64,000 nucleotides of DNA from assembly GCF_045603845.1 (NCBI RefSeq), contig NZ_JAZUMY010000072.1:4236-68235 (forward strand). The letters run 5' to 3'. This DNA is from Methanobrevibacter sp. (GTDB lineage Archaea > Methanobacteriota > Methanobacteria > Methanobacteriales > Methanobacteriaceae). This document shows, piece after piece, positions 8,034 to 63,443 of the stretch (position 1 is the first letter of the stretch; every line of letters begins with the position of its first letter). A model generated the notes under the pieces. That model made no database searches. It was given only the letters and a program-made list of their open reading frames with translations, and was not told where the DNA came from. The translations under genes and the position numbers were made by a program.

Positions 8034-8486
8034 TTAGTGATGATGGTAGTGATCATGTGAATGACCATCAGGTTCACAAAACTCTTCTCCATTTGCAGTA
8101 CTTGTTAATTTAACGTGTTCGACACCTTTAAGTCTCATAATCCTTTCTGTTAAATCACGAATCTCAGCAATGTCTCCATTTACAACTACAATTTCCATAC
8201 AATACTTATCAGTCATGTGGATATGCATGCTTGTATTGATTTCATTTCTGAAACTGTGTTGGATTTCTGCCAGGTTTTCCATCACTCCGGTATAATGGTG
8301 GTCGTAAATAATTGTAATAATACCAATCCTTTCCCCTTCCATGGAATTCATCCACTGATAACGAACAATATAATCCTGAAGTGCATCACGAATACCCTTT
8401 GAACGAGACTGGTAACCTCTCTCTTTCAATACTTCATCAAAATCAGATAATAATTTTTTAGGTAATGACATACTTATTCTCATCAT
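8034..8486 (-). CDS. nikR: Nickel-responsive regulator NikR
   Basis: Ribbon-helix-helix RISMSLP...SRSKGIRDA; YDHH, QH, HIH and C Ni ligands; His-rich tail. Confidence 0.95.
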   Translation of the reverse strand: MMRISMSLPKKLLSDFDEVLKERGYQSRSKGIRDALQDYIVRYQWMNSMEGERIGIITIIYDHHYTGVMENLAEIQHSFRNEINTSMHIHMTDKYCMEIVVVNGDIAEIRDLTERIMRLKGVEHVKLTSTANGEEFCEPDGHSHDHYHHH

Positions 8487-8545
8487 AGAAATAACCTTAT
8501 TTATACATTATTATATTATACTTAGATTTTTTACTTATATAAATA

Positions 8546-8573
8546 TTATGATAAAAATAGAAAATGATAATAC
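8546..8573. promoter_or_regulatory. Putative NikR operator upstream of nikR
   Basis: TTATGA-N16-TAATAC, matching the GTATGA-N16-TCATAC NikR box architecture with one mismatch per half. Confidence 0.55.
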
Positions 8574-8601
8574 TCAGATAATAAATTTTAAGTAAAAAAT
8601 A

Positions 8602-9078
8602 TTATTCAACAAGGAGATAATATTCCCCATCTGATTTATGGATATGTTTTAAAAGGCCTTTGTTTTCTAAAGACAATATGATGTGATACATTCTAAAATT
8701 AGTCAGTTTCAAATCCCCATAAAGCAAATTGCCTTCCAGAATATATTTTGAAACTAAATTTTTCTCATTAACAAGAGTTTTAATTAATTCGAAAGATTCT
8801 TTCTCTTTCATATTTAACTCCAACTCTTCCAAATCTTTTTTTGAATTTACAGTATTGACTTCTTTATCTGAACTGATCAAACGTACATTTTCATCCTGAA
8901 ATTCTATTAAACCTTTATTTGAAAGAGAATTCAATACTTGAATCAAATCATATTCATGGAAACTTCCACTAAATAATTCTTTTTTAAGTGCGGAAATTGG
9001 AATTACACCATCATATTCCACATCAAATATTTTTATCTGATTAAAAACAACTTCCTCTTTTCTGGTAATATTAATCAT
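8602..9078 (-). CDS. Hypothetical protein, probably tandem winged-helix
   Basis: Two similar segments (LIQVLNSLSNKGLI / MYHIILSLENKGLL). Confidence 0.55.
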   Translation of the reverse strand: MINITRKEEVVFNQIKIFDVEYDGVIPISALKKELFSGSFHEYDLIQVLNSLSNKGLIEFQDENVRLISSDKEVNTVNSKKDLEELELNMKEKESFELIKTLVNEKNLVSKYILEGNLLYGDLKLTNFRMYHIILSLENKGLLKHIHKSDGEYYLLVE

Positions 9079-40470: not shown

Positions 40471-41034
40471 TTGATTTCATCGATAATAATAATTATGAAT
40501 AGAAAAAGATGCGACTGGGTCGAAGGCAAAGAAGACATTTACATAAACTATCATGACGAAGAGTGGGGAATTCCAAAATACGATGATGACATATTATTTG
40601 AAATGCTGATTTTGGAATCATTTCAGGCAGGACTGTCATGGATTACTATCTTGAAAAAACGTGAATCATTTAGAGAAGCTTTCGATAATTTTAACCTGGA
40701 TAAAATCATTGATTATGATGATGCGAAAGTAAGTGAATTGATGGAAAATGAAAAGATTATTCGTAACAGAGGTAAAATTGAAGCAACCATAGCAAACGCC
40801 AAAGTATTTAAGGATATTCAAAAGGAATGCGGAAGTTTTTCAGACTATATTTGGGGTTTTACAGACGGTGAAATCATAAAAGCAGAATATAAAACAAAAT
40901 CAGAGTTGTCTGAAAAGATTTCAAAGGATCTAAAGAAAAAAGGTATGAAATATGTAGGTCCAACTACAATATATTCATACTTAGAATCCATCGGCATAAT
41001 TGACAATCATACCCCGGAATGTTTTATGTTTTAA
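40471..41034 (+). CDS. tag: DNA-3-methyladenine glycosylase I (likely start at MNRKRCDW)
   Basis: YHDEEWG, FEMLILESFQAGLSWITILKKR, IIRNRGKIEA, KYVGPTTIYSY, DNHTPEC. Confidence 0.93.
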   Translation: MISSIIIIMNRKRCDWVEGKEDIYINYHDEEWGIPKYDDDILFEMLILESFQAGLSWITILKKRESFREAFDNFNLDKIIDYDDAKVSELMENEKIIRNRGKIEATIANAKVFKDIQKECGSFSDYIWGFTDGEIIKAEYKTKSELSEKISKDLKKKGMKYVGPTTIYSYLESIGIIDNHTPECFMF

Positions 41035-42938
41035 TTATAATATAATACTACCATTTTTACATGTTGCTGGACGAAATATCCATTATAATATGTTTTTATT
41101 AAATGATACCTATTATCAACCTCAATGCCACCAACAGAAGCTATTCCATCAGCATTTGTTGTTCTTAGATAGTCTTTTCCATCAACATTGAATGTGACGC
41201 TCTGATTGGCATAAGGATTTCCATTACCGTCCAGAATTTTAACAGGATACTCTCTAAAAGAATCATATACAGAATATATGTATGCTTCAGGTGTTTCTTC
41301 CATCCAATCAATATATTCTCCTCTAGCATAGTTTTTAGGCATTAAAATTGTATTTAACACCTTAATCTGATTGGATACAACATATTCGTTATTGCTGGTT
41401 ACAATATCATAATATCCCGGAGACAGATTGATTCTTAATGTAGCAATGCCCTGAGAATTGGTTGTTCTAACATATTTTACTCCATTTATATCGAAAGTAA
41501 TCTGCTGATTAGCTACCGGATTATATGATTCATCAACCAACTTGGCTTCAAATTGAGATTCGTTCTTATAATATTTGACTAAATTCTGAGTGAACAGATA
41601 AGGAGTCACTTTAATGTTATTGCATACAACACAACCATCGTTGAGATTTTCAACTGTGATGATATAATCGCCAGGAATCAAATTAATATTTAATTTGGCT
41701 TTTCCATCAGAATCTGTAGTTCTATTGTACATAACACCATTTATATTCATCCGTAACTTTGCATTAGCCAATGGGGTTCCATTACCACTGATAATATGAA
41801 CAATGAATTGTGAATCATTCTTATAAATTTTTACCAGATCATTGGATAAAATAGAAGGTAAAACAGTTACATTATTGCTTACCTTAAATCCGCCATCAGA
41901 ATTTTCTGAAGTTATGATGTAATCCCCAGGGTGGAGATTGATGTTCAATTTAGCTATGCCGCTGACATTTGTCGTGCGGTTGTAGAAAACACCATTAATA
42001 TTGAACTGAACAGTTTTGTTAACTAAAAGATTGGCTTCACTATCAAAAGCTTTAACCAAAAACTGTGAATCGTTTTTATAAATTTTAACCAAATCATTTG
42101 TTTCCAATGTTGGTAAAATACTTATCGTTGTATTGTTTGAACATCCCGCAATAGTTGCTGACCCATCGAAAACCATTTCCATAAGATATGTGCCGACATT
42201 CAATTTGACAGGCAAAGTAGCCTGACCATTGGAGTCTGTATGTCTGGTATAAACCTGTTTATTTATTCTGAATTTAACAGATTTATCTTTTAAAGGTCTG
42301 TTTAAATCATCAAGAAGAGTAATTGTGAAATTTGTTCCATTATTATTATAATAAACTGTTAAATTTTCCTTTTGAGGTAGAATCTTCGTGTTGAATGAAG
42401 GTATCTTGAATATTATATCTTTATAAGTTCCATTTGCAAATGTTTCATCACCACTATAATAGAAATCAATGGAGTACCTGCCTTTTTCCAAATTATTAAA
42501 GTCATAGCTTAAATATCCATTGGTAAGATTAAATTTTTGATTATCCAAAAATGAAAATACGATAAAACCTGTAGCGTTAGGATTTGAATTTAACAATAAT
42601 GTTGCATTCCCATCACCTGTCCTGTTTATTATGACTATTTTGAAATCTGGATTAGCTTTATCGGGAGCCAAATTGGCAGTTGAATTAATAGATATAGGGT
42701 CGGATAAATTTTCTTCATCCACATTTTTTATTCCATAGTAAAAAACATCAATATTATATCCAACTACCACATGATATGAACTTTCATCTTCAGAGGTATA
42801 AACCGGAGACAATTCCCTGAATTGCAAATCACCATAAATATTATCATTGATTTCGCTTACATTCTCATTAGCCGAAACTTGAGAAATCATGAAAAATGAC
42901 AATAATAGAATTAAAATAATATATTTTTTAGATATCAT
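41031..42938 (-). CDS. Adhesin-like protein with Ig-like repeats
   Basis: Signal peptide (VSA-NE); repeats of ...NDLVKIYKNDSQF...NINGV.YNRTT...G.A.LNINL.PG.Y.I. Confidence 0.9.
   Translation of the reverse strand: MISKKYIILILLLSFFMISQVSANENVSEINDNIYGDLQFRELSPVYTSEDESSYHVVVGYNIDVFYYGIKNVDEENLSDPISINSTANLAPDKANPDFKIVIINRTGDGNATLLLNSNPNATGFIVFSFLDNQKFNLTNGYLSYDFNNLEKGRYSIDFYYSGDETFANGTYKDIIFKIPSFNTKILPQKENLTVYYNNNGTNFTITLLDDLNRPLKDKSVKFRINKQVYTRHTDSNGQATLPVKLNVGTYLMEMVFDGSATIAGCSNNTTISILPTLETNDLVKIYKNDSQFLVKAFDSEANLLVNKTVQFNINGVFYNRTTNVSGIAKLNINLHPGDYIITSENSDGGFKVSNNVTVLPSILSNDLVKIYKNDSQFIVHIISGNGTPLANAKLRMNINGVMYNRTTDSDGKAKLNINLIPGDYIITVENLNDGCVVCNNIKVTPYLFTQNLVKYYKNESQFEAKLVDESYNPVANQQITFDINGVKYVRTTNSQGIATLRINLSPGYYDIVTSNNEYVVSNQIKVLNTILMPKNYARGEYIDWMEETPEAYIYSVYDSFREYPVKILDGNGNPYANQSVTFNVDGKDYLRTTNADGIASVGGIEVDNRYHLIKTYYNGYFVQQHVKMVVLYYN
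41340..42372 (-). repeat. About four Ig-like repeats of about 85 aa (255 nt period) in the adhesin, plus a degenerate fifth near the C-terminus
   Basis: KENLTVYY / TNDLVKIYK / SNDLVKIYK / TQNLVKYYK unit starts; boundaries approximate. Confidence 0.75.
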
Positions 42939-45845: not shown

Positions 45846-45959
45846 TTAATCTCCTTTATTCCAGTTTACGATACCATAAACAATACATAGGAGCGTAGAT
45901 AAGATAATTCCAACATATACTCCCCAAATCCAAGGGTCTTCAATTCCTAAAATTACCAT
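45846..45959 (-). CDS. Small symporter accessory membrane peptide, 37 aa (not in ORF track)
   Basis: MVILGIEDPWIWGVYVGIILSTLLCIVYGIVNWNKGD*; ATG overlaps the SSS stop (TAATG); single TM helix. Confidence 0.8.
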   Translation of the reverse strand: MVILGIEDPWIWGVYVGIILSTLLCIVYGIVNWNKGD

Positions 45960-47566
45960 TATGCATCACCCATATTATCAATGTTTTTGAATGCTTCATC
46001 AATTACCTCAGAAGCAGGAGGTTTGGTAAGTAAACTTACAACAACAGTGAATATTGCTGAAATCGGAACAGCTATCAGCATTACATCAATGAACGGCCAT
46101 GGTGCGGCAGGCAATATTGTTTCCATACCCAATAACGCCATACAGATTCCGAGACCTTTTGCGGTTTTTGCAAATACGAAAATCAACCAGAACAAACTTA
46201 CAAAGGTTCCGGATAAAATACCTGCAATAGCCCCAAGTCTTGTAATTCCTTTCCAGTACAAGGCACCTAAAAATACAGGCAGGAATGCTGCTGCACAGAT
46301 TTCAAAGAACAGGCTTGTTCCTAAAGCAACTACACTTCCAGGAAGTGAGAAAGCCATAATCAATGCCAATATAATAGCTATCAATATACCGATTCTTGAA
46401 ATGGTAACCTGGTCCAATTTCTGTTTAGCCTTATCCCTTATTGTACCGTAAATGTCCACACCGAATGCTGTACCCTGAGTATGAAGCTGTGAAGATATCG
46501 TTGACATTGCAGCTGCAATCAGGGATAACAGGAAGATGTAAACAAACCATTCAGGCAATGCCATTGTGATAAACGTTGGAATGATTTTATCGATGTTTCC
46601 CCCAACGACATCAACTGCAATCTGACCTAACTTGTCATAGAAATAGACATTGGACAATGAACCTACAATGTAAGCAGTTGTTGGCATGATTGCAATGAAA
46701 ATACCGCCAATCAGGACAGATCTGTTTAATTCCTTATCTGATTTTACAGTCATGAACCTTACAATCAATGAAGGTTGGGCAAGTACACCTATACCTACAC
46801 CAATAAGGGTAGATGACACTAAGGACCACCAGAATGGTGTTCCAAACGTCGGGAAGCTCGTCCACCCCGTACCCCCCGTTGCCGTGGCTTCGGCAGGATA
46901 CAAGTTCACCATTCCTGAAAGTGCAGTGTTTGCAGTGTCGACTCCGCCAAGCAACCAATATACAAATACAAGCAGGAACACCATTGCAATAACCATGATT
47001 GTTCCTTGCAATGCATCTGTATACATTACACCACGGATACCACCAAATAATACATAGAATGTAATAATAATGGATAAAATAAGCAATGCAATACTGAAAT
47101 CAATTAAAAGTGAAGATTCTAAAAATCTTGCAGCACCAATCAATACAACAGCTGCATAAAGAGGCATTGCACAGAAAATAATTAATCCTGAAGCATAGTG
47201 AATAAATTTGGAATCAAAACGTTTACCTAAGAACTCAGGAAACGTTAAAGAGCCTAAAGCATGCCCCATTCTACGAGTTCTTTTTCCTAAAAATACAAAT
47301 GCAACGAATATACCTATAATAATATTTAAAAAGGCTAACCATAAAACACTCATACCATACTGACCAGCAACTCCACCGAAACCTACAATAGCTGCCGTCG
47401 AAATAAAAGTAGCACCATAACTCATTGCCATAATAAATGGATGTGTGTCTTTACCAGCTATCATAAAGTCTTCAGAGGAATTGGTTTTTTTGTATGCATA
47501 ATAACCTACAAGAACTAATGCGAAAATGTAGATTATAAATACAATAGTTAAAATCATAACATCCAT
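45959..47566 (-). CDS. Sodium:solute symporter (SSS family)
   Basis: SSEDFMIAG, ATFISTAAIVGFGG, GGIRGVMYTDALQG, AAAMSTISSQL. Confidence 0.93.
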   Translation of the reverse strand: MDVMILTIVFIIYIFALVLVGYYAYKKTNSSEDFMIAGKDTHPFIMAMSYGATFISTAAIVGFGGVAGQYGMSVLWLAFLNIIIGIFVAFVFLGKRTRRMGHALGSLTFPEFLGKRFDSKFIHYASGLIIFCAMPLYAAVVLIGAARFLESSLLIDFSIALLILSIIITFYVLFGGIRGVMYTDALQGTIMVIAMVFLLVFVYWLLGGVDTANTALSGMVNLYPAEATATGGTGWTSFPTFGTPFWWSLVSSTLIGVGIGVLAQPSLIVRFMTVKSDKELNRSVLIGGIFIAIMPTTAYIVGSLSNVYFYDKLGQIAVDVVGGNIDKIIPTFITMALPEWFVYIFLLSLIAAAMSTISSQLHTQGTAFGVDIYGTIRDKAKQKLDQVTISRIGILIAIILALIMAFSLPGSVVALGTSLFFEICAAAFLPVFLGALYWKGITRLGAIAGILSGTFVSLFWLIFVFAKTAKGLGICMALLGMETILPAAPWPFIDVMLIAVPISAIFTVVVSLLTKPPASEVIDEAFKNIDNMGDA

Positions 47567-47641
47567 AAATAAACCTCATAATAAAATTTACATTAGCAAT
47601 CTATTATATATAATCCAATTTATTTAAAGATTATCATTAAA

Positions 47642-47667
47642 AATACATTAATGTACATTAATGTACA
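47642..47667. promoter_or_regulatory. TrpY-type TRP boxes, SSS-proximal
   Basis: AATACA-ttaa-TGTACA-ttaa-TGTACA; includes the perfect 16-bp palindrome TGTACATTAATGTACA (47652-47667). Confidence 0.7.
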
Positions 47668-47731
47668 ACTACACAATTATTAAAAAAGATGAAAAATAAT
47701 ATAATCAGAATTTAAAAGATTGACACTGTAT

Positions 47732-47747
47732 TGTACACATTTGGACA
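47732..47747. promoter_or_regulatory. TrpY-type TRP boxes, paaK-proximal
   Basis: TGTACA-catt-TGGACA immediately upstream of the BRE/TATA-like AAAAAAGCTTTATATT. Confidence 0.6.
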
Positions 47748-47821
47748 ATGAAAAAAGCTTTATATTATATAAAAAACGAAAATATAACACGTATTAAAAA
47801 AATTTTAAAATAGGGATAAAT

Positions 47822-49120
47822 ATGTTTTGGGATGAAAAAACAGAATGTATGACAAAAGAAGAAAAAGAAGAACTTCAGCTGAAAAGATTGCAGGAAACCG
47901 TAAAACTAGCATATGAAAATGTGGAGTTCTATAAAAAAAGATTTGATGAAATAGGACTTAAACCTGAAGACATCAAAACTTTAGAAGACATTGAAAAAAT
48001 TCCATTTACAACAAAAAGTGACCTAAGAGAAGCATATCCTCTAGGATTGCTTGCAGTTCCACGTGATGAAATTGTAGAAATCCACGCATCATCAGGTACA
48101 ACCGGAAAACCTACAGTGACCGGATATACCCAAAACGATTTGGACATATGGGGAGAATGCATTGCACGTGGATTAAAAATGGCTGGTGCTGAAAAAGAAT
48201 ACATTATTCAAAACGCCTACGGATACGGTTTATTTACCGGAGGATTCGGTATTCACCACGGAGGAAACATGATGGGTGCAATAACAATTCCAATTTCAGC
48301 AGGAAATACCCAAAGGCAATTGGACACCATGGTCGACTTCCAAAGTGACATATTGACCTGTACCCCTTCATATGCAATGTATTTAGGAGAATCCCGTGAA
48401 AAAGCAGGAATTCCACTAGAAGACATTAATTTAAAAGCAGGAATTCACGGTGCTGAAATGTGGACAGATGAAATGAGAAAAAGAATTGAAGCATCACTCG
48501 GAATCAAAACATACAACATTTACGGTTTGACCGAAGTAATGGGACCTGGTGTTGCACAGGAATGCAGCGAACAGAACGGAATGCACATCCAGGACGATCA
48601 CTTCTATCCTGAAATAATAAACCCAAAGACAGGAGAAACACTTGACTATGGAGAAAACGGAGAACTCGTATTAACTTCACTTACAAAAACAGGAATGCCT
48701 ATTTTAAGATTTAGAACAAAAGATTTAACTTCATTAATTGCCGATAAATGTGAATGTGGAAGAACTACTGTGAGAATGACCAGAATCACCGGAAGAAGTG
48801 ACGACATGTTAAAAATCAAAGGTGTAATGGTATTCCCATCCCAAATTGAAAAAGCATTGCTTAAAATTGAAGGAATAAGTCCAAACTACATGATACATGT
48901 AACCAGACCGGACATCTTAGATGAAGTGGAAGTTAAAGTAGAGGCTTCCAAGGAATTATTCTCAGATGAAGTAAAAGAAATGGAAAAAGTAGAAAAACAA
49001 ATACAGGCATCAATCAGATCAGAAACCGGACTTAGAGTGGATGTAACATTATGTGAACCGGAATCACTCCCTAGAAGTGAAGGTAAAGCTGTTCGTGTAA
49101 TCGATGAAAGAAATTTATAA
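47822..49120 (+). CDS. paaK: Phenylacetate(aryl-acetate)-CoA ligase
   Basis: [62 protein letters not shown]. Confidence 0.93.
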
Positions 49121-49132
49121 AAAGGTGGAAAA

Positions 49133-49561
49133 ATGGCAGTACAAATTTCAGTTTTTATCGAAAACAAAGAAGGAAGAATTAAAAAAGCAATTGACACATT
49201 AGCTAAAGCAGACGTGAATATTCGTGCATTATCTGTTGGAGATACAACAAAATATGGTATTTTAAGATTAATTGTATCCGACAATAAAAAAGCAATTGAA
49301 GCGTTGGAAGAAGACGGATTTATTGTAAAAGAAAGTGAAGTTGTTGTTGTTGCAGTTCCAGACAAACCAAATGGATTGAATAAAACCTTAGCTATCTTAG
49401 ATGACGCAGACATTAACCTGGAATACATTTATGCATTCGTCAGCAGCCAACCTGAAGAAGCTATTGTTGCAATAAAAGTAGAAAATACTGAAAAGGCAAT
49501 TGAAGCATTTGAAGCAAAAGATGCTAAAATACTCACTGAAGAAGAACTTGAAAAGATTTAA
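49133..49561 (+). CDS. Tandem ACT-domain protein
   Basis: QISVFIENKEGR, VNIRALSV, VPDKPNGL, INLEYIYAF. Confidence 0.9.
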   Translation: MAVQISVFIENKEGRIKKAIDTLAKADVNIRALSVGDTTKYGILRLIVSDNKKAIEALEEDGFIVKESEVVVVAVPDKPNGLNKTLAILDDADINLEYIYAFVSSQPEEAIVAIKVENTEKAIEAFEAKDAKILTEEELEKI

Positions 49562-49621
49562 TTATCTTTTCTCATTATTTTTTTAGAAAAACCGTCATTA
49601 ATAATAAAAAAAGTAAAAGAA

Positions 49622-49900
49622 TTAGAATTCTTTTAATAATTTAGCAATATCTTCCCTGGAATAACCTAATCGTGGAAGCAAACTTTTAACTGGTTCTGAA
49701 TCTGGAATTACACCAAGTTCTCTCCAGCTTTTAAAGTCATTATTTAATATACTGTTAATTAAAAGTTGAATTGTTATCAAATCATCACTTTTAATTGCAA
49801 TGAAAGCATCTTCATCTCGAAAATTGCCTTCAGGATCAATCAATGTTAATTTTCCGGTTCTATCTTTTTTTACGATAGCATTATCTATTTGGTAAGCCAT
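49622..49900 (-). CDS. Hypothetical protein
   Basis: 92-aa ORF with GGGGA SD downstream of iorB. Confidence 0.65.
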   Translation of the reverse strand: MAYQIDNAIVKKDRTGKLTLIDPEGNFRDEDAFIAIKSDDLITIQLLINSILNNDFKSWRELGVIPDSEPVKSLLPRLGYSREDIAKLLKEF

Positions 49901-49955
49901 AATATCCCCACTTTTTTATCTAATTAAAGATTTAATTATAATAATATTTAAATAT

Positions 49956-50534
49956 TTAACCTTTGATTGAATTGTATCCACTTTCAATAGCTTTTAAATT
50001 TAAATCATGGAACCTTTCATGCAAATTATTTTTCATTGCTTCAATAACTGAATCTTTTGATAACGGAAATTTATCATCAGCAGTTACGGCACCTAAAAGA
50101 ACCATATTTAAAGATAAAACGTTTCCCGCTTCCAAAGCCAATTTAGTAGCATCAATAGGCAATACATGAGTAAAATTTTCCTTTAAAGAATTCGTAATGC
50201 TTTCAACACTAGGATAGGCATCATTAGTGGAAGACGGAATAATCGGATGAGTATTATAAACAATCTTACTATCCTTATTTACCTTATGCAAACCCCTTAT
50301 GGTTTCAATCGGCTCGAATGAAAGCAGCATATCTGCAGTAGTGTCAGGTATGATTGAACTGTTGTAATCACCAATCTTTAGTTCAGTTGATACAGATCCT
50401 CCTCTTTGTGACATTCCATGAATTTCACTCATCACAACATCCAAACCCTGGTTCATTGCAGCTTCACCAATGATAACGGAGGTTTTAATGATTCCCTGGC
50501 CTCCTACACCGCAAATGTAAATACTGTAACTCAT
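49956..50534 (-). CDS. iorB: Indolepyruvate:ferredoxin oxidoreductase beta subunit
   Basis: CGVGGQGII, SEIHGMSQRGGSV, NMVLLGA. Confidence 0.95.
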   Translation of the reverse strand: MSYSIYICGVGGQGIIKTSVIIGEAAMNQGLDVVMSEIHGMSQRGGSVSTELKIGDYNSSIIPDTTADMLLSFEPIETIRGLHKVNKDSKIVYNTHPIIPSSTNDAYPSVESITNSLKENFTHVLPIDATKLALEAGNVLSLNMVLLGAVTADDKFPLSKDSVIEAMKNNLHERFHDLNLKAIESGYNSIKG

Positions 50535-52438
50535 TTTCCCACCTCCAATGCACCATATTTACAAACCTGAATACAGACTCCACATCCATCACACATTGAA
50601 GTGTCAATTTCTATTTTTCCGCCAACTTTTGAAATGGCAGGACATGCAAGTTCATTTACACATTTATCACAATTATTACAATTGGATTCAATGAATTTAA
50701 CTGGAGGTTTTTTGGTTAAACCTTTAATCAATGTACATGGTGCTTTTGAAATAATTACTGCAGTGTCATCTCTTTCGAAAGCTTCCTTATATGTTTTGAC
50801 AACCTGTTCCAGATTAAACGGATTGATTACACGCACATAGTCAACGCCACAGGCAAGGGCCAATTTACGGATGGAAATTTCAGGCGCTTCATCACCCATA
50901 CCATCCACAGGAATACCCGGATTTGGCTGACCGCCAGTCATTGCAGTAATCCTGTTATCAAGGACAGTCAAAACAAAATTATGCTTATTGTGAACAGCAT
51001 TGATTAACGGAGAAACACCGCTGTGGAAGAACGTGGAATCCCCAATAAAACTTGCAACCTTCTGGTCTGTTGAAACTGAAAATCCGCAACCGTCACCGAC
51101 ACTGGATCCCATTGACAAGAGGTAATCCGCAGCATTATAAGGAGGATTGATACCTAAAGTGTAACATCCAATATCTGATGCAAAAACAACATCGGAAGGT
51201 TTTAAGCCCAGTTCCTCAATAGCTATATTGATTCCATAATACATTGCCCTGTGAGGACATCCTGCACATAGAACAGGAGCTCTTGATGGTATTTCATCAC
51301 TTAATTTATTTAGACTGTCAGTAAATGTGATGTCCTGTTTATTTATGAAATTCATGACTTTATCGAATCCTTCGCTTACAATATCTGAATTGAATTCATA
51401 ACATTGAGGCAATGTTCCATCCAGTTTACCGTGGACAGTAACATCAAGGTTTTCACGGCCAATAATAGCTAAAACTTCCTTTTCCATAATCGGATCGACT
51501 TCTTCAACAATGAAGACCTCATCCAAATCCTTAATGAAATCAAATACTTTTTTATCTGGGAACGGATAAGAAAATCCGATTTTTAATATGTCCATATCCA
51601 AATCATTGAATTTGATAACATCATAAGCATAATTATATGCGCTTCCTGAAGAAATTACTCCATATTTTTTATTGTCAGAAAAGGATTGTGAAGTGTTGAA
51701 ATCGGATTTGTTGGTTACATCATTTATTTTGCTGATTTTTGCACAAAGCCTTTCATGCATTTTGCCTGCAAATGCCGGAACCGGAACATATTTTGAAGGG
51801 TCCTTATCAAAGTGACCCCTCATCCAGTGATCATCATTATTTGATGAGTTGTCATTAATATCTCCAAATTCAACAACCCCTCTCATGTGAGATACACGAG
51901 TGGTTGTTCTTACAATAACAGGCAACCCATATTCTTCAGACAAATCAAATGCATACTTGACCATATCCTTAACTTCCTGACAATTGGACGGTTCAAGCAC
52001 AGGAACATTTGACAAGCGTGCATAATTACGTGTATCCTGCTCATTTTGAGATGAAAACAATGAAGGATCATCTGCCGTTAAAATAACCATTCCACCATTG
52101 ACACCAGTGTATGCCGTAGTCATGAATGAATCGCTAGCAACATTCATTCCGACATGCTTCATGAATGTAAATGAACGAAGTCCGGATGCCGCTGCTGTTG
52201 CTGCAACTTCCATTGCGACCTTTTCATTTGTTGAAAACTCAAAATAAATGTTTGCATCCTTAGCAAGCACTGATAATATATTTCCTATTTCTGATGAAGG
52301 AGTTCCAGGATAAGTTGCTGCAATGGATATTCCTGCCTCAATCACGCCCCTTACAGCAGCCTCATTTCCAAGCAAAAACTGTTTTTCACCAGATTTTCCA
52401 GTAACTAATTCTTTTAAATTCATTATATTTATCCTCAA
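50531..52438 (-). CDS. iorA: Indolepyruvate:ferredoxin oxidoreductase alpha subunit (likely start at MNLKEL)
   Basis: LLGNEAAVRG, YPGTPSSEI, MKHVGMNVA, LCAGCPHR, SDIGCY, IGDSTFFHSG; C-terminal 2x4Fe-4S. Confidence 0.96.
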   Translation of the reverse strand: MRINIMNLKELVTGKSGEKQFLLGNEAAVRGVIEAGISIAATYPGTPSSEIGNILSVLAKDANIYFEFSTNEKVAMEVAATAAASGLRSFTFMKHVGMNVASDSFMTTAYTGVNGGMVILTADDPSLFSSQNEQDTRNYARLSNVPVLEPSNCQEVKDMVKYAFDLSEEYGLPVIVRTTTRVSHMRGVVEFGDINDNSSNNDDHWMRGHFDKDPSKYVPVPAFAGKMHERLCAKISKINDVTNKSDFNTSQSFSDNKKYGVISSGSAYNYAYDVIKFNDLDMDILKIGFSYPFPDKKVFDFIKDLDEVFIVEEVDPIMEKEVLAIIGRENLDVTVHGKLDGTLPQCYEFNSDIVSEGFDKVMNFINKQDITFTDSLNKLSDEIPSRAPVLCAGCPHRAMYYGINIAIEELGLKPSDVVFASDIGCYTLGINPPYNAADYLLSMGSSVGDGCGFSVSTDQKVASFIGDSTFFHSGVSPLINAVHNKHNFVLTVLDNRITAMTGGQPNPGIPVDGMGDEAPEISIRKLALACGVDYVRVINPFNLEQVVKTYKEAFERDDTAVIISKAPCTLIKGLTKKPPVKFIESNCNNCDKCVNELACPAISKVGGKIEIDTSMCDGCGVCIQVCKYGALEVGK

Positions 52439-52543
52439 AAAATCTTAAAATTATAATATAAATAGATAATTATATTATAATAATAAGTTCAAAATATAAT
52501 ATAAACTTATAGATATTTTGACTAGCTTTATAAAGAGGGAAAA

Positions 52544-60427: not shown

Positions 60428-61939
60428 TCATTCTTTTTTCGGCTGCAGCCGCAGCGTTGCAATAAATACAACTGCCAGCAGAATTGCCGTTATTATCATT
60501 ACGAATCCCATAGCTTCCTGAATAATGGTATCTACAGCATTCACAAGAGTACTGTCCTGTGTAATATTTTCAGTACCTGCTGTTTGGAGGAAATTTGCTG
60601 CATCATCAAAGAATTGTGGGTCGTTTGAATGCTCTGGTGCATACATATCGATTGCGGTACTAAGACCTCCCATAACTCCAAGAATTAAAATTACCCCAAT
60701 AATTGCTGTACCCATTGATTCACCTAATGTCTGAGTGGTTGTAAGAACACCGGATGCATTGTTTTCATTTTCCTTAGGAATATTGGTTAATGAAATATCT
60801 GTACTTAGAGACATTACGAAACCAAGTCCAGCACCCAATACAAACAAACCAGGCATTAAATCATACATTGATGTGTTCAATCTGAATTGGAAGCTTAAAA
60901 TAATACATCCAATGATTGCGATTAAAGATCCTAATGCTATTAATTTCTTATGACCAACTTTAGTGGATAAACTTGGAGCTGCTATTGCAAATATAAGCAG
61001 ACCTATAGTCATCGGCAGTGTGGTCAAACCTGTATTTAATGCGTTTAACTGCATTACACTTTGCAGGAACAAGGAAACAGCAAACAATGCTCCTCCCATT
61101 GCAAGACAACCAATTAATCTAATGATTGCTCCTACACGTAAATTTCTGTCTTTGAATAATCCCATATCAAGTAACGGTACTTTACCATTACCTTTTCTTC
61201 TACTTTCAAACCATGCAAATGCTGCTAAGATAATTAAACCTGCAACGATTACCATTATACTGGTTGAAGTATCTTTTGTTAGCATTAAAATACCCCATAC
61301 GAACAATACAAGTCCTATTAATGAAATTATAGCACCAGTAATATCCAAATCGCTTTTAGATTCTGTAGGTTTGAAATCAGGTATTTTACTTTGCATTACT
61401 AAAATGAATATAACAAATATTAATTCAATTGCGAATCCCCATCTCCAACTGAAAAATGTTGTCATGACCCCTCCAAAGAGCGGACCGACAGCTGCAGAAA
61501 TGGAAACCATTACACTTTCAATTGCCAATGCAAATGTACGCTGTTCACCATGATAAATTCCACTTATAAGGGAAACAGTAGCAGGTGTCATTAATGCTCC
61601 TGCAATACCTTCAATCAATGCCCATCCGATAAATAACACTCCTGTACTCCAGCTTATAGCTGCGGTAAATGTACCGACACCATAAAGTACGGTACCAATT
61701 ATGAACAGTTTCTTTTTACCAACTATATCCTGAAGTTTGGTACTCAGCAGCATGAATGCTGCAGTGATGAGTGTATAAAAGGACATGATCAATTGAATGG
61801 TACTAACATCAGTATGCAGGTCAACTACAACCTTAGAAATACTAACATTCATGAATGTAGCATCCAATGTTATAATAAATGAAGCACAAGCCACTAATAC
61901 TAATGGAATCCATGAGTGTTGCTTAACAGTTTCATTCAT
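60428..61939 (-). CDS. MFS drug:H+ antiporter (14-TM, DHA2/EmrB-like)
   Basis: LDATFMNVS, DIVGKKK, GPLFGG..T..SWRW.F, DITGA, PLLDM.LF..RN. Confidence 0.9.
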   Translation of the reverse strand: MNETVKQHSWIPLVLVACASFIITLDATFMNVSISKVVVDLHTDVSTIQLIMSFYTLITAAFMLLSTKLQDIVGKKKLFIIGTVLYGVGTFTAAISWSTGVLFIGWALIEGIAGALMTPATVSLISGIYHGEQRTFALAIESVMVSISAAVGPLFGGVMTTFFSWRWGFAIELIFVIFILVMQSKIPDFKPTESKSDLDITGAIISLIGLVLFVWGILMLTKDTSTSIMVIVAGLIILAAFAWFESRRKGNGKVPLLDMGLFKDRNLRVGAIIRLIGCLAMGGALFAVSLFLQSVMQLNALNTGLTTLPMTIGLLIFAIAAPSLSTKVGHKKLIALGSLIAIIGCIILSFQFRLNTSMYDLMPGLFVLGAGLGFVMSLSTDISLTNIPKENENNASGVLTTTQTLGESMGTAIIGVILILGVMGGLSTAIDMYAPEHSNDPQFFDDAANFLQTAGTENITQDSTLVNAVDTIIQEAMGFVMIITAILLAVVFIATLRLQPKKE

Positions 61940-62111
61940 TTTTTCCTAATCCTCCATATCTATAAAATTTATAAGAAAATATTAACAAATTATGTTTAAT
62001 TTAGATGTTCAATATTATTCTCACTAATATTTATCCATTTATTGTTTTATAAAGTTTTTGTTGTTTAATGAACAAAAAATATGATGTTAGTTGCAATTTT
62101 TCAATATATCC

Positions 62112-62159
62112 GAACATTCGTTCACCATATCAATTTTAGATGTAACAGAACGTTCGTTC
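62112..62159. promoter_or_regulatory. Two TetR-type operator candidates in the MFS/tetR divergent promoter
   Basis: GAACATTCGTTC (62112-62123) and GAACGTTCGTTC (62148-62159; AGAACG-tt-CGTTCT perfect inverted repeat). Confidence 0.65.
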
Positions 62160-62202
62160 TCTATATTATTTAATAATAATAAAAGATAATATTATTAAAT
62201 GT

Positions 62203-62808
62203 ATGAATACAAAAGAATTAATTTTAGCAAAGACTTTAAAATTAATGTTTGAAAAACAGAACTCCCTCGTTTCAATTAGAGAAATTAGTGATATCTCAGG
62301 AATTGCTATTGGAGGAATATACCATTATTTTTCAAGTAAAGAAAAAATATATAATGAAATTACTGAAAGATACTTGATAAATTATATCAAATTCGATATG
62401 GACAAACTCAAGCAGATAAAAGGAAATGCAAAAGAAAAAATCCACGATGCCCTGGCTGAAATGTTTAAAGAAAAGCAAAGCGGAATCGAAATTGAAACGA
62501 TTGATAATGTAGATTATAGGATTATAGTTGATGTTTTAACTGCAAATGTGCTTGCTTATGAAAATTCTCACGAGATTTACCGAAATGTCTTGAAAGAATT
62601 AATGGAACTCTTCACAGAAATTACTGTAGAAGGTCAAAATAACAGAGAAATCAGACAAGACCTCCCAGCCAAAGACATTGCAGAGTCCTTAATTCGCATA
62701 TACTTAGGAATTCAATATAAATGGGAGGTATATTGGATTGATGACATGGTTTCATCCTTTGAAGACAATTTTGACTTGGAATGGGAAAAGATAAGATTCA
62801 AAGAATAA
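62203..62808 (+). CDS. TetR/AcrR family regulator
   Basis: SIREISDISGIAIGGIYHYFSSKEKI. Confidence 0.9.
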   Translation: MNTKELILAKTLKLMFEKQNSLVSIREISDISGIAIGGIYHYFSSKEKIYNEITERYLINYIKFDMDKLKQIKGNAKEKIHDALAEMFKEKQSGIEIETIDNVDYRIIVDVLTANVLAYENSHEIYRNVLKELMELFTEITVEGQNNREIRQDLPAKDIAESLIRIYLGIQYKWEVYWIDDMVSSFEDNFDLEWEKIRFKE

Positions 62809-62840
62809 TAAAATTACAACGAAAAACATGATGTGGTTAG

Positions 62841-63443
62841 ATGAACACTAAAGATATGATTGTTGAGAAAACGCTTAAATTAATATTGGAGAAAAACACA
62901 ATTGACATTTCAATCAGTGAAATTCGAAATGCCACAGGACTGACAACAGGCGGCATATATTATCATTTTTCAGATAAAAGCGATATATTTGAAGCAATTC
63001 TTCAAAAGTATATGGTGGATTATATTAAAATCGATTTTGATCAAATCATTCTTGAAGGTTCATCAAGGGAGAAAATTCATGACGCCTTGTCTTATATTTT
63101 ACATCACTACATAAACGGCGTGGAAATTGAAAACATCAATGAAAACATCAATTATAATGATGTGATACTTCTTTTAACCGCAACAGGATATGCCGAGGAT
63201 GAGGTTAACAGCATAGTTGCACAAACAGGAAAAGATATTAGAATATTTTTAACCGACCTTGTCGAAGATGGCAAAAGGAGAAATGAAATCAGACAGGACT
63301 TCTCAACTGAAAACATTGTCGAAACATTGATTGTAATGTTTATGGGAATTCAATATTCTTGGTTAATTTTTTCAAATGATAATACTGATTCCATTTTTGA
63401 GAAAAACTTTGATATAACCTGGCAGGCCATCAAATGCCAGTAA
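62841..63443 (+). CDS. TetR/AcrR family regulator (paralog of the upstream gene)
   Basis: SISEIRNATGLTTGGIYYHFSDKSDI; shared EKIHDAL and EIRQD motifs. Confidence 0.9.
   Translation: MNTKDMIVEKTLKLILEKNTIDISISEIRNATGLTTGGIYYHFSDKSDIFEAILQKYMVDYIKIDFDQIILEGSSREKIHDALSYILHHYINGVEIENINENINYNDVILLLTATGYAEDEVNSIVAQTGKDIRIFLTDLVEDGKRRNEIRQDFSTENIVETLIVMFMGIQYSWLIFSNDNTDSIFEKNFDITWQAIKCQ

Follow-up and report, generated by a model that had tools for sequence, protein, structure and literature searches.

A set of TGTACA boxes lying between two divergent genes of a rumen Methanobrevibacter constitutes, judged by its conservation across species, a genuine and clade-specific transcription-factor operator. 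The boxes occupy the 255 bp gap between a gene for an SSS-family Na+/solute symporter and a gene for a PaaK-family aryl-acetate–CoA ligase (paaK), within a 64 kb stretch of DNA (the window). Conservation of the sequences indicates that the widely conserved main target is the symporter promoter, and that the boxes near paaK occur only in a subclade. An earlier note on this DNA had placed boxes at 47642–47667 and 47732–47747, and re-reading of the sequence confirmed both the letters and the coordinates. The host, described there as a gut methanogen, is more exactly a Methanobrevibacter from the rumen, within the thaueri/millerae/gottschalkii clade.

Locus layout and operators

The symporter gene (45959–47566, minus strand, ATG at 47566) encodes a 535 aa protein that matches Pfam SSF (1.6e-60) and scores 212 bits against TIGR00813, over the cutoff of 184. 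Its best specific NCBIfam scores were to PutP (226 bits) and PanF (171 bits), both far under the equivalog cutoffs; the monocarboxylate permease models ActP, also under its cutoff, and MctC matched as well. The Shine-Dalgarno sequence GAGGT (47573–47577, minus strand) was invariant in 60 aligned upstream regions, and the TATA box TTTAAATA (minus-strand sequence, 47621–47628) contained the invariant columns T69, T70, T71, A72 and A76 of alignment A1. On the other side of the gap, paaK (47822–49120, plus strand, ATG at 47822) encodes an AMP-forming ligase of 432 aa with AMP-binding and AMP-binding_C_2 domains, which matched TIGR02155 over its full length with 568 bits, under the equivalog cutoff of 646, and whose nearest solved structures are the phenylacetate-CoA ligases 4R1L and 2Y27 (E ~1e-124). 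Its TATA box TTTATATT (47759–47766, plus strand; T79, T80, A81, T82 and A83 invariant in alignment A2) follows an A-rich BRE region, AAAAAAGC.

Twelve nucleotides beyond paaK lies a gene for a 142 aa ACT-domain pair protein of the ACT_8 type (49133–49561, plus strand; PF19571 1.3e-23, PDB 2F06 2.5e-24), which probably senses a small molecule as a partner of the ligase, and the paaK–ACT junction was spanned by one metatranscriptome contig from a single weak run. Further downstream and separately transcribed are the genes for the beta and alpha subunits of indolepyruvate:ferredoxin oxidoreductase, IorB (49956–50534, minus strand; NF005323 272.8 bits, cutoff 238) and IorA (50531–52438, minus strand; TIGR03336 821.8 bits, cutoff 650.9), both of which score above their equivalog cutoffs. 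The gene calls of the earlier note (SSS, PaaK-family ligase, ACT pair and IorB/IorA) were thus upheld by Pfam and NCBIfam profile matches. Its placing of the module next to iorAB also held as far as adjacency goes; boxes do not accompany iorBA, as no TGTACA pair was found in the iorA promoter gap that is common to tfrB (52439–52543), nor anywhere in the window outside 47652–47747.

Operator O1, on the symporter side, consists of three hexamers, AATACA (47642–47647), TGTACA (47652–47657) and TGTACA (47662–47667), separated by TTAA spacers and therefore phased at 10 bp, in the form (A)ATACA-TTAA-TGTACA-TTAA-TGTACA. It includes a 22 bp perfect palindrome, TACATTAATGT|ACATTAATGTA, at 47644–47665, and lies upstream of the SSS TATA box with its proximal edge about 13 nt away. 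Operator O2 (47732–47747) has two hexamers, TGTACA (47732–47737) and TGGACA (47742–47747), with the spacer CATT, and 11 nt separate its end from the paaK TATA box further downstream.

The earlier note had proposed a scan of orthologous gaps for TGTACA-N4-TGTACA, and among 59 species of the Methanobrevibacter gottschalkii/thaueri/millerae clade we found the arrangement conserved: in 52 of the 59 clade loci a three-box site with a score of at least 14 out of 16 was present 74–96 nt from the SSS start codon and 11–14 nt upstream of the SSS TATA box. The form kept in these 52 species is (A)TACAT-TRA-TGTACA-N4-TGTACA, at a fixed distance to the SSS ATG. The TTRA spacer between boxes 1 and 2 is conserved, whereas the second spacer differs between species, as do the flanks. 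In a MAFFT alignment of SSS upstream regions that was not anchored on the motif, O1 box positions were at least 90% conserved versus a mean column identity of 47%, and conservation was confined to the Shine-Dalgarno sequence, the TATA box and the operator, the last at the level of the other two. In some loci an inserted TPR gene separates SSS from paaK, and there the O1-type site remains with SSS.

The site on the paaK side is more restricted, so that the earlier picture of operators over both divergent genes stands widely for the symporter promoter and only within a subclade for paaK. A (T/A)GTACA-N4-TGTACA site was found 77–92 nt from the paaK ATG in the window and in loci L001, L002, L003, L009, L027, L032, L040, L048, L059 and L065, and an equivalent 101 nt from the ATG in L004 and L006; beyond the window's subclade and these loci it is decayed or absent. 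The TGGACA hexamer of the window is a lineage variant of TGTACA, the reading at orthologous sites, and L059 carries a single two-box site between the SSS and paaK TATA boxes.

The genes themselves are distributed far more broadly. Divergence of SSS and paaK was found in all Methanobrevibacter clades and in one Methanobacterium-like genome, an ACT gene follows paaK at every locus (Methanobacterium included), linkage of SSS|paaK-ACT to iorBA was seen in loci L001–L068 and L084–L086, and the SSS|paaK-ACT...iorBA|tfrB synteny is conserved across the family. The operator was absent from the M. smithii/intestini clade, the ruminantium/olleyae clade and Methanobacterium, all of which have the genes and the synteny. 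Should TrpY occur throughout the family, the operator would be a recent regulon gain.

The regulator reading the operator

By analogy with the TRP box, TrpY is the most likely binder and our leading candidate. The TRP box is, to our knowledge, the sole operator consensus described for an amino-acid regulator in Methanobacteriaceae. At Methanothermobacter trpB2 the boxes are said to lie upstream of the promoter, and repression to take further TrpY assembly. The TRP-box consensus is reportedly TGTACA, as given in the abstract of Xie & Reeve 2005. Parallels with Methanothermobacter thermautotrophicus and its TrpY/TRP-box system (Xie & Reeve 2005; Karr et al. 2008) are the hexamer itself, the presence of several boxes between divergent genes, a host in the same family, Methanobacteriaceae, and targets tied to tryptophan or aromatic amino-acid supply. 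The locus differs from that system in that the targets encode a transporter and an aryl-CoA ligase rather than trp biosynthesis enzymes, that the TTRA spacer is conserved, and that the operator occurs in one Methanobrevibacter clade only. TrpY is described as a repressor that binds "TRP box sequences" (PMC6737238); since the T. kodakarensis TrpY homologue has no role in trp regulation (PMC6737238), orthology is no guarantee of function. No trpY (ORF with an M-W start) was found in the 64 kb window or related loci, and no trp operon or trp genes in the window or in 910 kb of related loci. The regulators encoded in the window are HTH_3, NikR, MarR and FilR1-like proteins and two TetR proteins.

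Under a TrpY-read operator, an oligomerising, dimer-based regulator would fill palindromic hexamers phased at one helical turn and co-control both the uptake (SSS) and the CoA activation (PaaK and its ACT partner) of aryl-acetates. The Methanobrevibacter TrpY orthologue would nucleate on the boxes, and its Trp-bound form may spread across BRE/TATA, as reported for trpB2, shutting salvage off when the amino acid is plentiful; separately transcribed IorAB would reductively carboxylate the aryl-CoA, giving the arylpyruvates from which Phe, Tyr and Trp are made. Taken as a whole, this is our best explanation, and we put it somewhat short of an even chance. Against it stand the lack of boxes at iorBA and, for TrpY itself, the absence of the operator from sister clades that have the genes and synteny. 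The symporter contains nine Trp residues, contrary to the logic of Trp-codon-poor trp operons.

O1 and O2 end 11–14 nt upstream of TATA, abutting BRE and overlapping neither the TATA box nor the TSS, a placement that fits an activator as well as TrpY-style repression by trpB2-type assembly. Because a site upstream of BRE/TATA is typical of activators in archaea, Tar, Ptr2 and TFB-RF1 among them (PMC6737238), the designation of the binder as a repressor, taken from TrpY in the earlier note, is not established. It is accordingly quite possible, if short of probable, that a factor other than TrpY reads the operator, either an activator or a sensor of aryl-acetate or aryl-acetyl-CoA functionally like PaaX/PaaR, which would abut BRE and recruit TFB/TBP to turn uptake and activation on when aryl acids are available. 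Besides the position of both sites, this is favoured by the restriction of the operator to one Methanobrevibacter clade, as expected of a lineage-specific factor, by the absence of any site outside the SSS-paaK locus in 910 kb, and by the conserved TTRA spacer between boxes 1 and 2, because of which recognition cannot be of isolated TGTACA hexamers alone. However, a regulator gene linked to the SSS-paaK locus was present in none of 80 genomes, and the hexamer is identical to the reported TRP-box consensus.

We also compared the sites with the operator of Tar from Thermococcales, which likewise governs an aromatic-amino-acid-related regulon from a hexamer-based site upstream of BRE/TATA and whose half-site equals the window hexamer TGGACA (47742–47747). 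Tar recognises an inverted repeat, TGGACA-N8-TGTCCA, whereas the boxes here are phased TGTACA hexamers with N4 spacers; this inverted repeat was not present, orthologous sites read TGTACA rather than TGGACA, and a Tar-type operator was rejected. Tar homologues are essentially restricted to Thermococcales (PMC6737238).

Proposed aryl-acid salvage and the symporter substrate

The motif, its conservation, its placement relative to the promoters, the gene families and the synteny are shown directly, whereas TrpY as the regulator, the direction in which it acts, the signal it answers to and the substrate of SSS and PaaK are inferred. The module is a probable salvage system of a known kind. The route of aryl-acid activation and Ior carboxylation proposed in the earlier note agrees with the IOR-dependent pathway to aromatic amino acids of Methanococcus maripaludis (Porat et al. 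2004), which, as cited in PMC4162585, converts phenylacetate, indoleacetate or p-hydroxyphenylacetate to CoA thioesters that are then reductively carboxylated. Unlike in M. maripaludis, the ligase, its ACT partner and the candidate importer here form a cluster with iorBA, and a conserved operator accompanies them; we found no transporter or regulator defined for the Methanococcus pathway in the literature. Bacterial paa systems resemble the locus in combining a PaaK-family ligase, an adjacent SSS permease and dedicated transcriptional control, but they are catabolic (ring epoxidation) and the direction here is anabolic via IOR; no paaABCDE genes were present alongside the ligase, and PaaX/PaaR, which are regulators of the GntR/TetR families, are unrelated, as are the operators they bind.

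The symporter, whose gene is the main one under the operator, is the likely aryl-acid importer. Preference for indoleacetate over phenylacetate or 4-hydroxyphenylacetate as the substrate of ligase and importer would be pure conjecture. The symporter might instead carry an amino acid (proline, tryptophan or another), its adjacency to paaK reflecting shared regulation and not a shared pathway, as could be argued from PutP and PanF being the top specific models and from no family assignment naming an aryl-acid substrate. We regard this as unlikely, given that those scores fall far under the equivalog cutoffs, that the divergent pair is kept from Methanobrevibacter to a Methanobacterium-like genome, and that the SSS family takes in monocarboxylate permeases, whose ActP and MctC models match. 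A Pseudomonas phenylacetate permease belongs to the same family (TCDB 2.A.21.7).

Specificity and significance of the operator

Allowing at most one mismatch, TGTACA-N4-TGTACA occurred at two places in 64 kb (O1 and O2) versus 0.13 expected, and one of 100 shuffles attained two pair matches. Lone TGTACA hexamers were not enriched across the window (14 versus 13.5 expected), and three of the 14 lie inside the SSS-paaK gap. Across 910 kb of related DNA the matches (17 strict, 36 relaxed and 39 core) lay without exception in that gap. A metagenome scan for three perfect boxes returned unrelated repeats exclusively; 10 bp tandem repeats containing TGTACA are frequent in unrelated metagenomic DNA. 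Such repeats, together with an exact duplicate of TACATTAATG within the window, might suggest a nonfunctional chance or slippage-derived tandem repeat in an AT-rich spacer, a reading that is refuted as the boxes' origin by their cross-species conservation, at a fixed promoter-relative position despite differing spacers, to the level of the TATA box and Shine-Dalgarno sequence and in the SSS-paaK gap only, and to which we give almost no credence. A site kept in about 50 related species should therefore be a real genetic switch, probably one over the salvage of aromatic amino-acid precursors.

We know of very few cis-regulatory sites defined in methanogens and of none in the dominant rumen Methanobrevibacter; the present operator is a simple sequence with a footprint across some 50 species. 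Rather speculatively, one rumen Methanobrevibacter clade may have evolved a new three-box TGTACA operator and with it brought a candidate importer, and in a subclade the ligase operon too, under a regulon that senses an amino acid, which would be the first case of TrpY, or an archaeal factor of the same hexamer specificity, controlling the scavenging of bacterial aromatic fermentation products and not biosynthesis. If so, the archaeal aryl-acid pathway would gain its first defined transporter and regulator. Should TrpY bind, the sole characterised archaeal Trp regulon would acquire a salvage branch, and the phenylacetate and indoleacetate of rumen bacteria would be tied to methanogen nutrition; should another factor bind, the site can serve as bait for a new archaeal regulator. 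Either way, the operator points to the symporter as the candidate missing importer of the aryl-acid pathway, with relevance to the cross-feeding dependencies of rumen methanogens.

Box sites between the symporter gene and paaK

The 255 bp gap between the divergent genes for a Na+/solute symporter (SSS; 45959-47566, minus strand) and the aryl-acetate–CoA ligase family protein PaaK (47822-49120, plus strand) contains two box sites: a three-box site on the SSS side (47642-47667, AATACA-TTAA-TGTACA-TTAA-TGTACA), which includes a 22 bp perfect palindrome (47644-47665) centred on the middle hexamer, and a two-box site on the paaK side (47732-47747, TGTACA-CATT-TGGACA). With at most one mismatch allowed, TGTACA-N4-TGTACA was matched at these two sites only in the 64 kb window (0.13 matches expected), and two matches were equalled in 1 of 100 shuffles; lone TGTACA hexamers showed no overall enrichment across the same 64 kb. 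Within the gap, no Rfam family match for an RNA element was found. Both sites had been singled out in the earlier note, an observation that the analysis confirms and strengthens, and we consider it very likely that they constitute a genuine operator.

The window comes from a rumen Methanobrevibacter within the thaueri/millerae/gottschalkii clade, whose nearest species representative, the goat MAG RGIG3316, shares just 91% DNA identity. For comparison, loci around paaK were fetched from one genome per species (n = 80). Scanning of the orthologous SSS-paaK gaps revealed conservation of the three-box site in 52 of the 59 loci of this clade, where (A)TACAT-TRA-TGTACA-N4-TGTACA reached a score of 14/16 or higher at a distance of 74-96 nt from the SSS start codon; spacer 1 (TTRA) is conserved, spacer 2 is merely T-rich and the flanks are unconstrained. 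Species bearing the operator include M. thaueri, M. millerae, M. gottschalkii and MAG RGIG3316. A MAFFT alignment of SSS upstream regions, with the SSS start codon as sole anchor and a mean column identity of 47%, exhibited just three conserved islands, namely the operator, the TATA box TTTA(A/T)ATA and the SD sequence GAGGT. Every strict (17/17), relaxed (36/36) and core (39/39) match in 910 kb of Methanobrevibacter DNA fell inside the SSS-paaK gap. The divergent promoter region is split in about 25 species by a gene between SSS and paaK for a poorly conserved TPR-repeat protein of about 270 aa (minus strand in fetched loci L006:4965-5783 and L012:4995-5804); the three-box site nevertheless stays with SSS, which argues that the transporter promoter is its primary target.

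Beside the paaK BRE/TATA (AAAAAAGCTTTATAT), the two-box site persists only within the window's subclade and at two further loci; in L023 and L061 it has degenerated, and L059 has one two-box site positioned between the two TATA boxes. We found no operator in M. intestini/smithii-type loci, L066, the olleyae/ruminantium clade or the Methanobacterium loci, and no boxes in a 1.3 Mb contig of an AT-rich Methanobacterium-like organism. A homologue search seeded with Methanobacterium PaaK gave no Methanothermobacter locus. The olleyae/ruminantium loci (L069-L080, e.g. L073 and L080), which have no TGTACA pairs, carry another conserved block about 120-180 nt upstream of paaK, TGTGCA-N4-TGAACA-N4-ATATAC-N4-TAGACA, consisting of TGnnCA hexamers phased at roughly 10 bp upstream of a promoter-like TTTATTAATGATTAAAAATAAA. 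The sequence ATGCATTTTAGACA is shared with a Methanobacterium, and L081:9795-9830 belongs to this set of positions as well. The block could represent either the same operator in diverged form or the site of another regulator.

The gene module and its neighbourhood

The symporter scored above the TIGR00813 cutoff and far under the respective cutoffs of the PutP, PanF and ActP models. The paaK product is a PaaK-family AMP-forming ligase (TIGR02155, 568 bits, below the cutoff of 646) whose nearest solved structures are the phenylacetate-CoA ligases 4R1L and 2Y27; an exact-match look-up of protein records did not return its sequence. It is followed by an ACT-domain pair (49133-49561, plus strand; PF19571) with 2F06 as nearest solved structure, and by the minus-strand genes for IorB (49956-50534) and IorA (50531-52438), both of which exceed their equivalog cutoffs. 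The RNA data come from a single rumen metatranscriptome, at a low share, available as contigs and carrying no transcript ends for TSS mapping; one of its contigs runs across from paaK into ACT. The longest IorA ORF (MRINIMNLKEL...) begins with TTG at 52438, and because the IOR_alpha match starts at residue 19, the real start may be the ATG six codons downstream. The 395 bp convergent gap between ACT and iorB (49561-49956) holds as its sole ORF one of 92 aa (49622-49900, minus strand) that had no family match; a Roadblock/LC7 gene occupies the corresponding position in the Methanobacterium-like locus (L084:11957-12334).

The order SSS(-)/paaK(+)-ACT(+)...iorB(-)iorA(-)/tfrB(+) is kept across all Methanobrevibacter clades and in one Methanobacterium-like genome, and a second Methanobacterium retains paaK-ACT alone. 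Downstream of iorBA the window encodes TfrB, a SpoU methylase, dCTP deaminase and ProRS, and the tfrB-SpoU-DUF1512-dcd-ProRS tail common to L084 and the window marks this gene neighbourhood as ancient. Two SSS paralogues lie upstream of paaK in L084 (5752-9447), and next to the distal one is a small subunit of 67 aa ('Symport_access'). A contig labelled 'Bacteroidaceae bacterium' (L063, CAVDAS010000021.1) has the full methanogen synteny SSS/paaK-ACT-iorBA-tfrB in a layout near-identical to that of M. intestini L064, and looks like a mis-binned Methanobrevibacter contig. Elsewhere in the window, bacterial Ig-like and CarboxypepD_reg-like domains recur in a 635-aa protein (41031-42938, minus strand) that looks similar to the adhesin-like surface proteins of Methanobrevibacter.

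Candidate binders and promoter geometry

The hexamer of these sites equals TGTACA, reportedly the TRP-box consensus of Xie & Reeve 2005. TrpY is a repressor whose TRP boxes lie in the interval from trpY to trpE (PMC6737238), and the earlier note had proposed it as binder here. We regard that assignment as possible but tentative, and would give roughly the same guarded credence to a factor other than TrpY. A simple TrpY reading fits poorly with an operator limited to one clade, its activator-like position, the conserved first spacer, the Trp-rich SSS protein, the lack of boxes at iorBA, and the TrpH-type precedent of T. kodakarensis, whose TrpY homologue does not regulate trp (PMC6737238). Searches by M-W start and TrpB motifs found neither trpY nor trp genes in the window or any fetched locus, and full-text literature searches for TrpY with TGTACA returned nothing relevant.

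For regulon discovery, metagenome contigs were scanned for three perfect phased boxes, giving at least 120 matches (L087-L206). The matches listed were unrelated 10 bp tandem repeats or iterons, and four AT-rich or promoter-like loci that we inspected (two at ≤32% GC) were phage-like or unassignable. Such TGTACA-bearing repeats, comprising microsatellite-like arrays and iteron-like triplets adjoining phage or plasmid genes, are common in unrelated environmental DNA, and thus phased TGTACA alone is diagnostic of no single regulator.

No regulator could be linked to the locus: the inserted TPR protein was rejected as not a DNA binder, and the regulators in the window are distant and belong to other families. 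In the region 8034-9078 (minus strand), a NikR homologue (8034-8486) adjoins a 158-aa protein that has two apparent winged-helix repeats, a weak TrmB HTH match and no Pfam assignment. Two tandem TetR-family regulators (62203-62808 and 62841-63443) are divergent from an MFS transporter (60428-61939, minus strand), a typical efflux-pump/regulator arrangement (60428-63443).

In both the three-box and the two-box site, the edge nearest the promoter is 11-14 nt away from a TATA box, on its upstream side, so that both sites abut the BRE from upstream. Dimers bound to the palindromic hexamers at 10 bp phasing would all lie on one helix face, a placement that fits cooperative or oligomeric binding. 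This geometry can be read as that of an activator contacting TFB/TBP, since the activators known from archaea have their binding sites upstream of BRE/TATA (PMC6737238). It can also be read as a repressor that nucleates upstream and then spreads over the promoter. Such nucleation and spreading is said to occur for TrpY at trpB2.

A proposed regulated salvage module

Modules of IOR, a PaaK-type ligase and an ACT_8 gene are of an already known kind, and an SSS permease adjoining paaK has a bacterial parallel. Since PaaK is AMP-forming it would run in the activating direction, and we favour a regulator-controlled module in which aryl-acetate uptake and activation would feed IorAB. Methanococcus maripaludis has a documented aryl-acid/IOR route (Porat 2004, cited in PMC4162585). 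The interpretation in the earlier note is partly upheld. The sites are best described as a TRP-box-like operator on a putative salvage module, and may belong to the TrpY regulon. The conserved operator and the regulated importer it implies, itself a candidate, appear to be the new part, no description of either having been found in the literature searched. The pathway itself is otherwise expected, and the operator is a clean regulatory site, open to direct testing, in a group of organisms that is important but has received little study.
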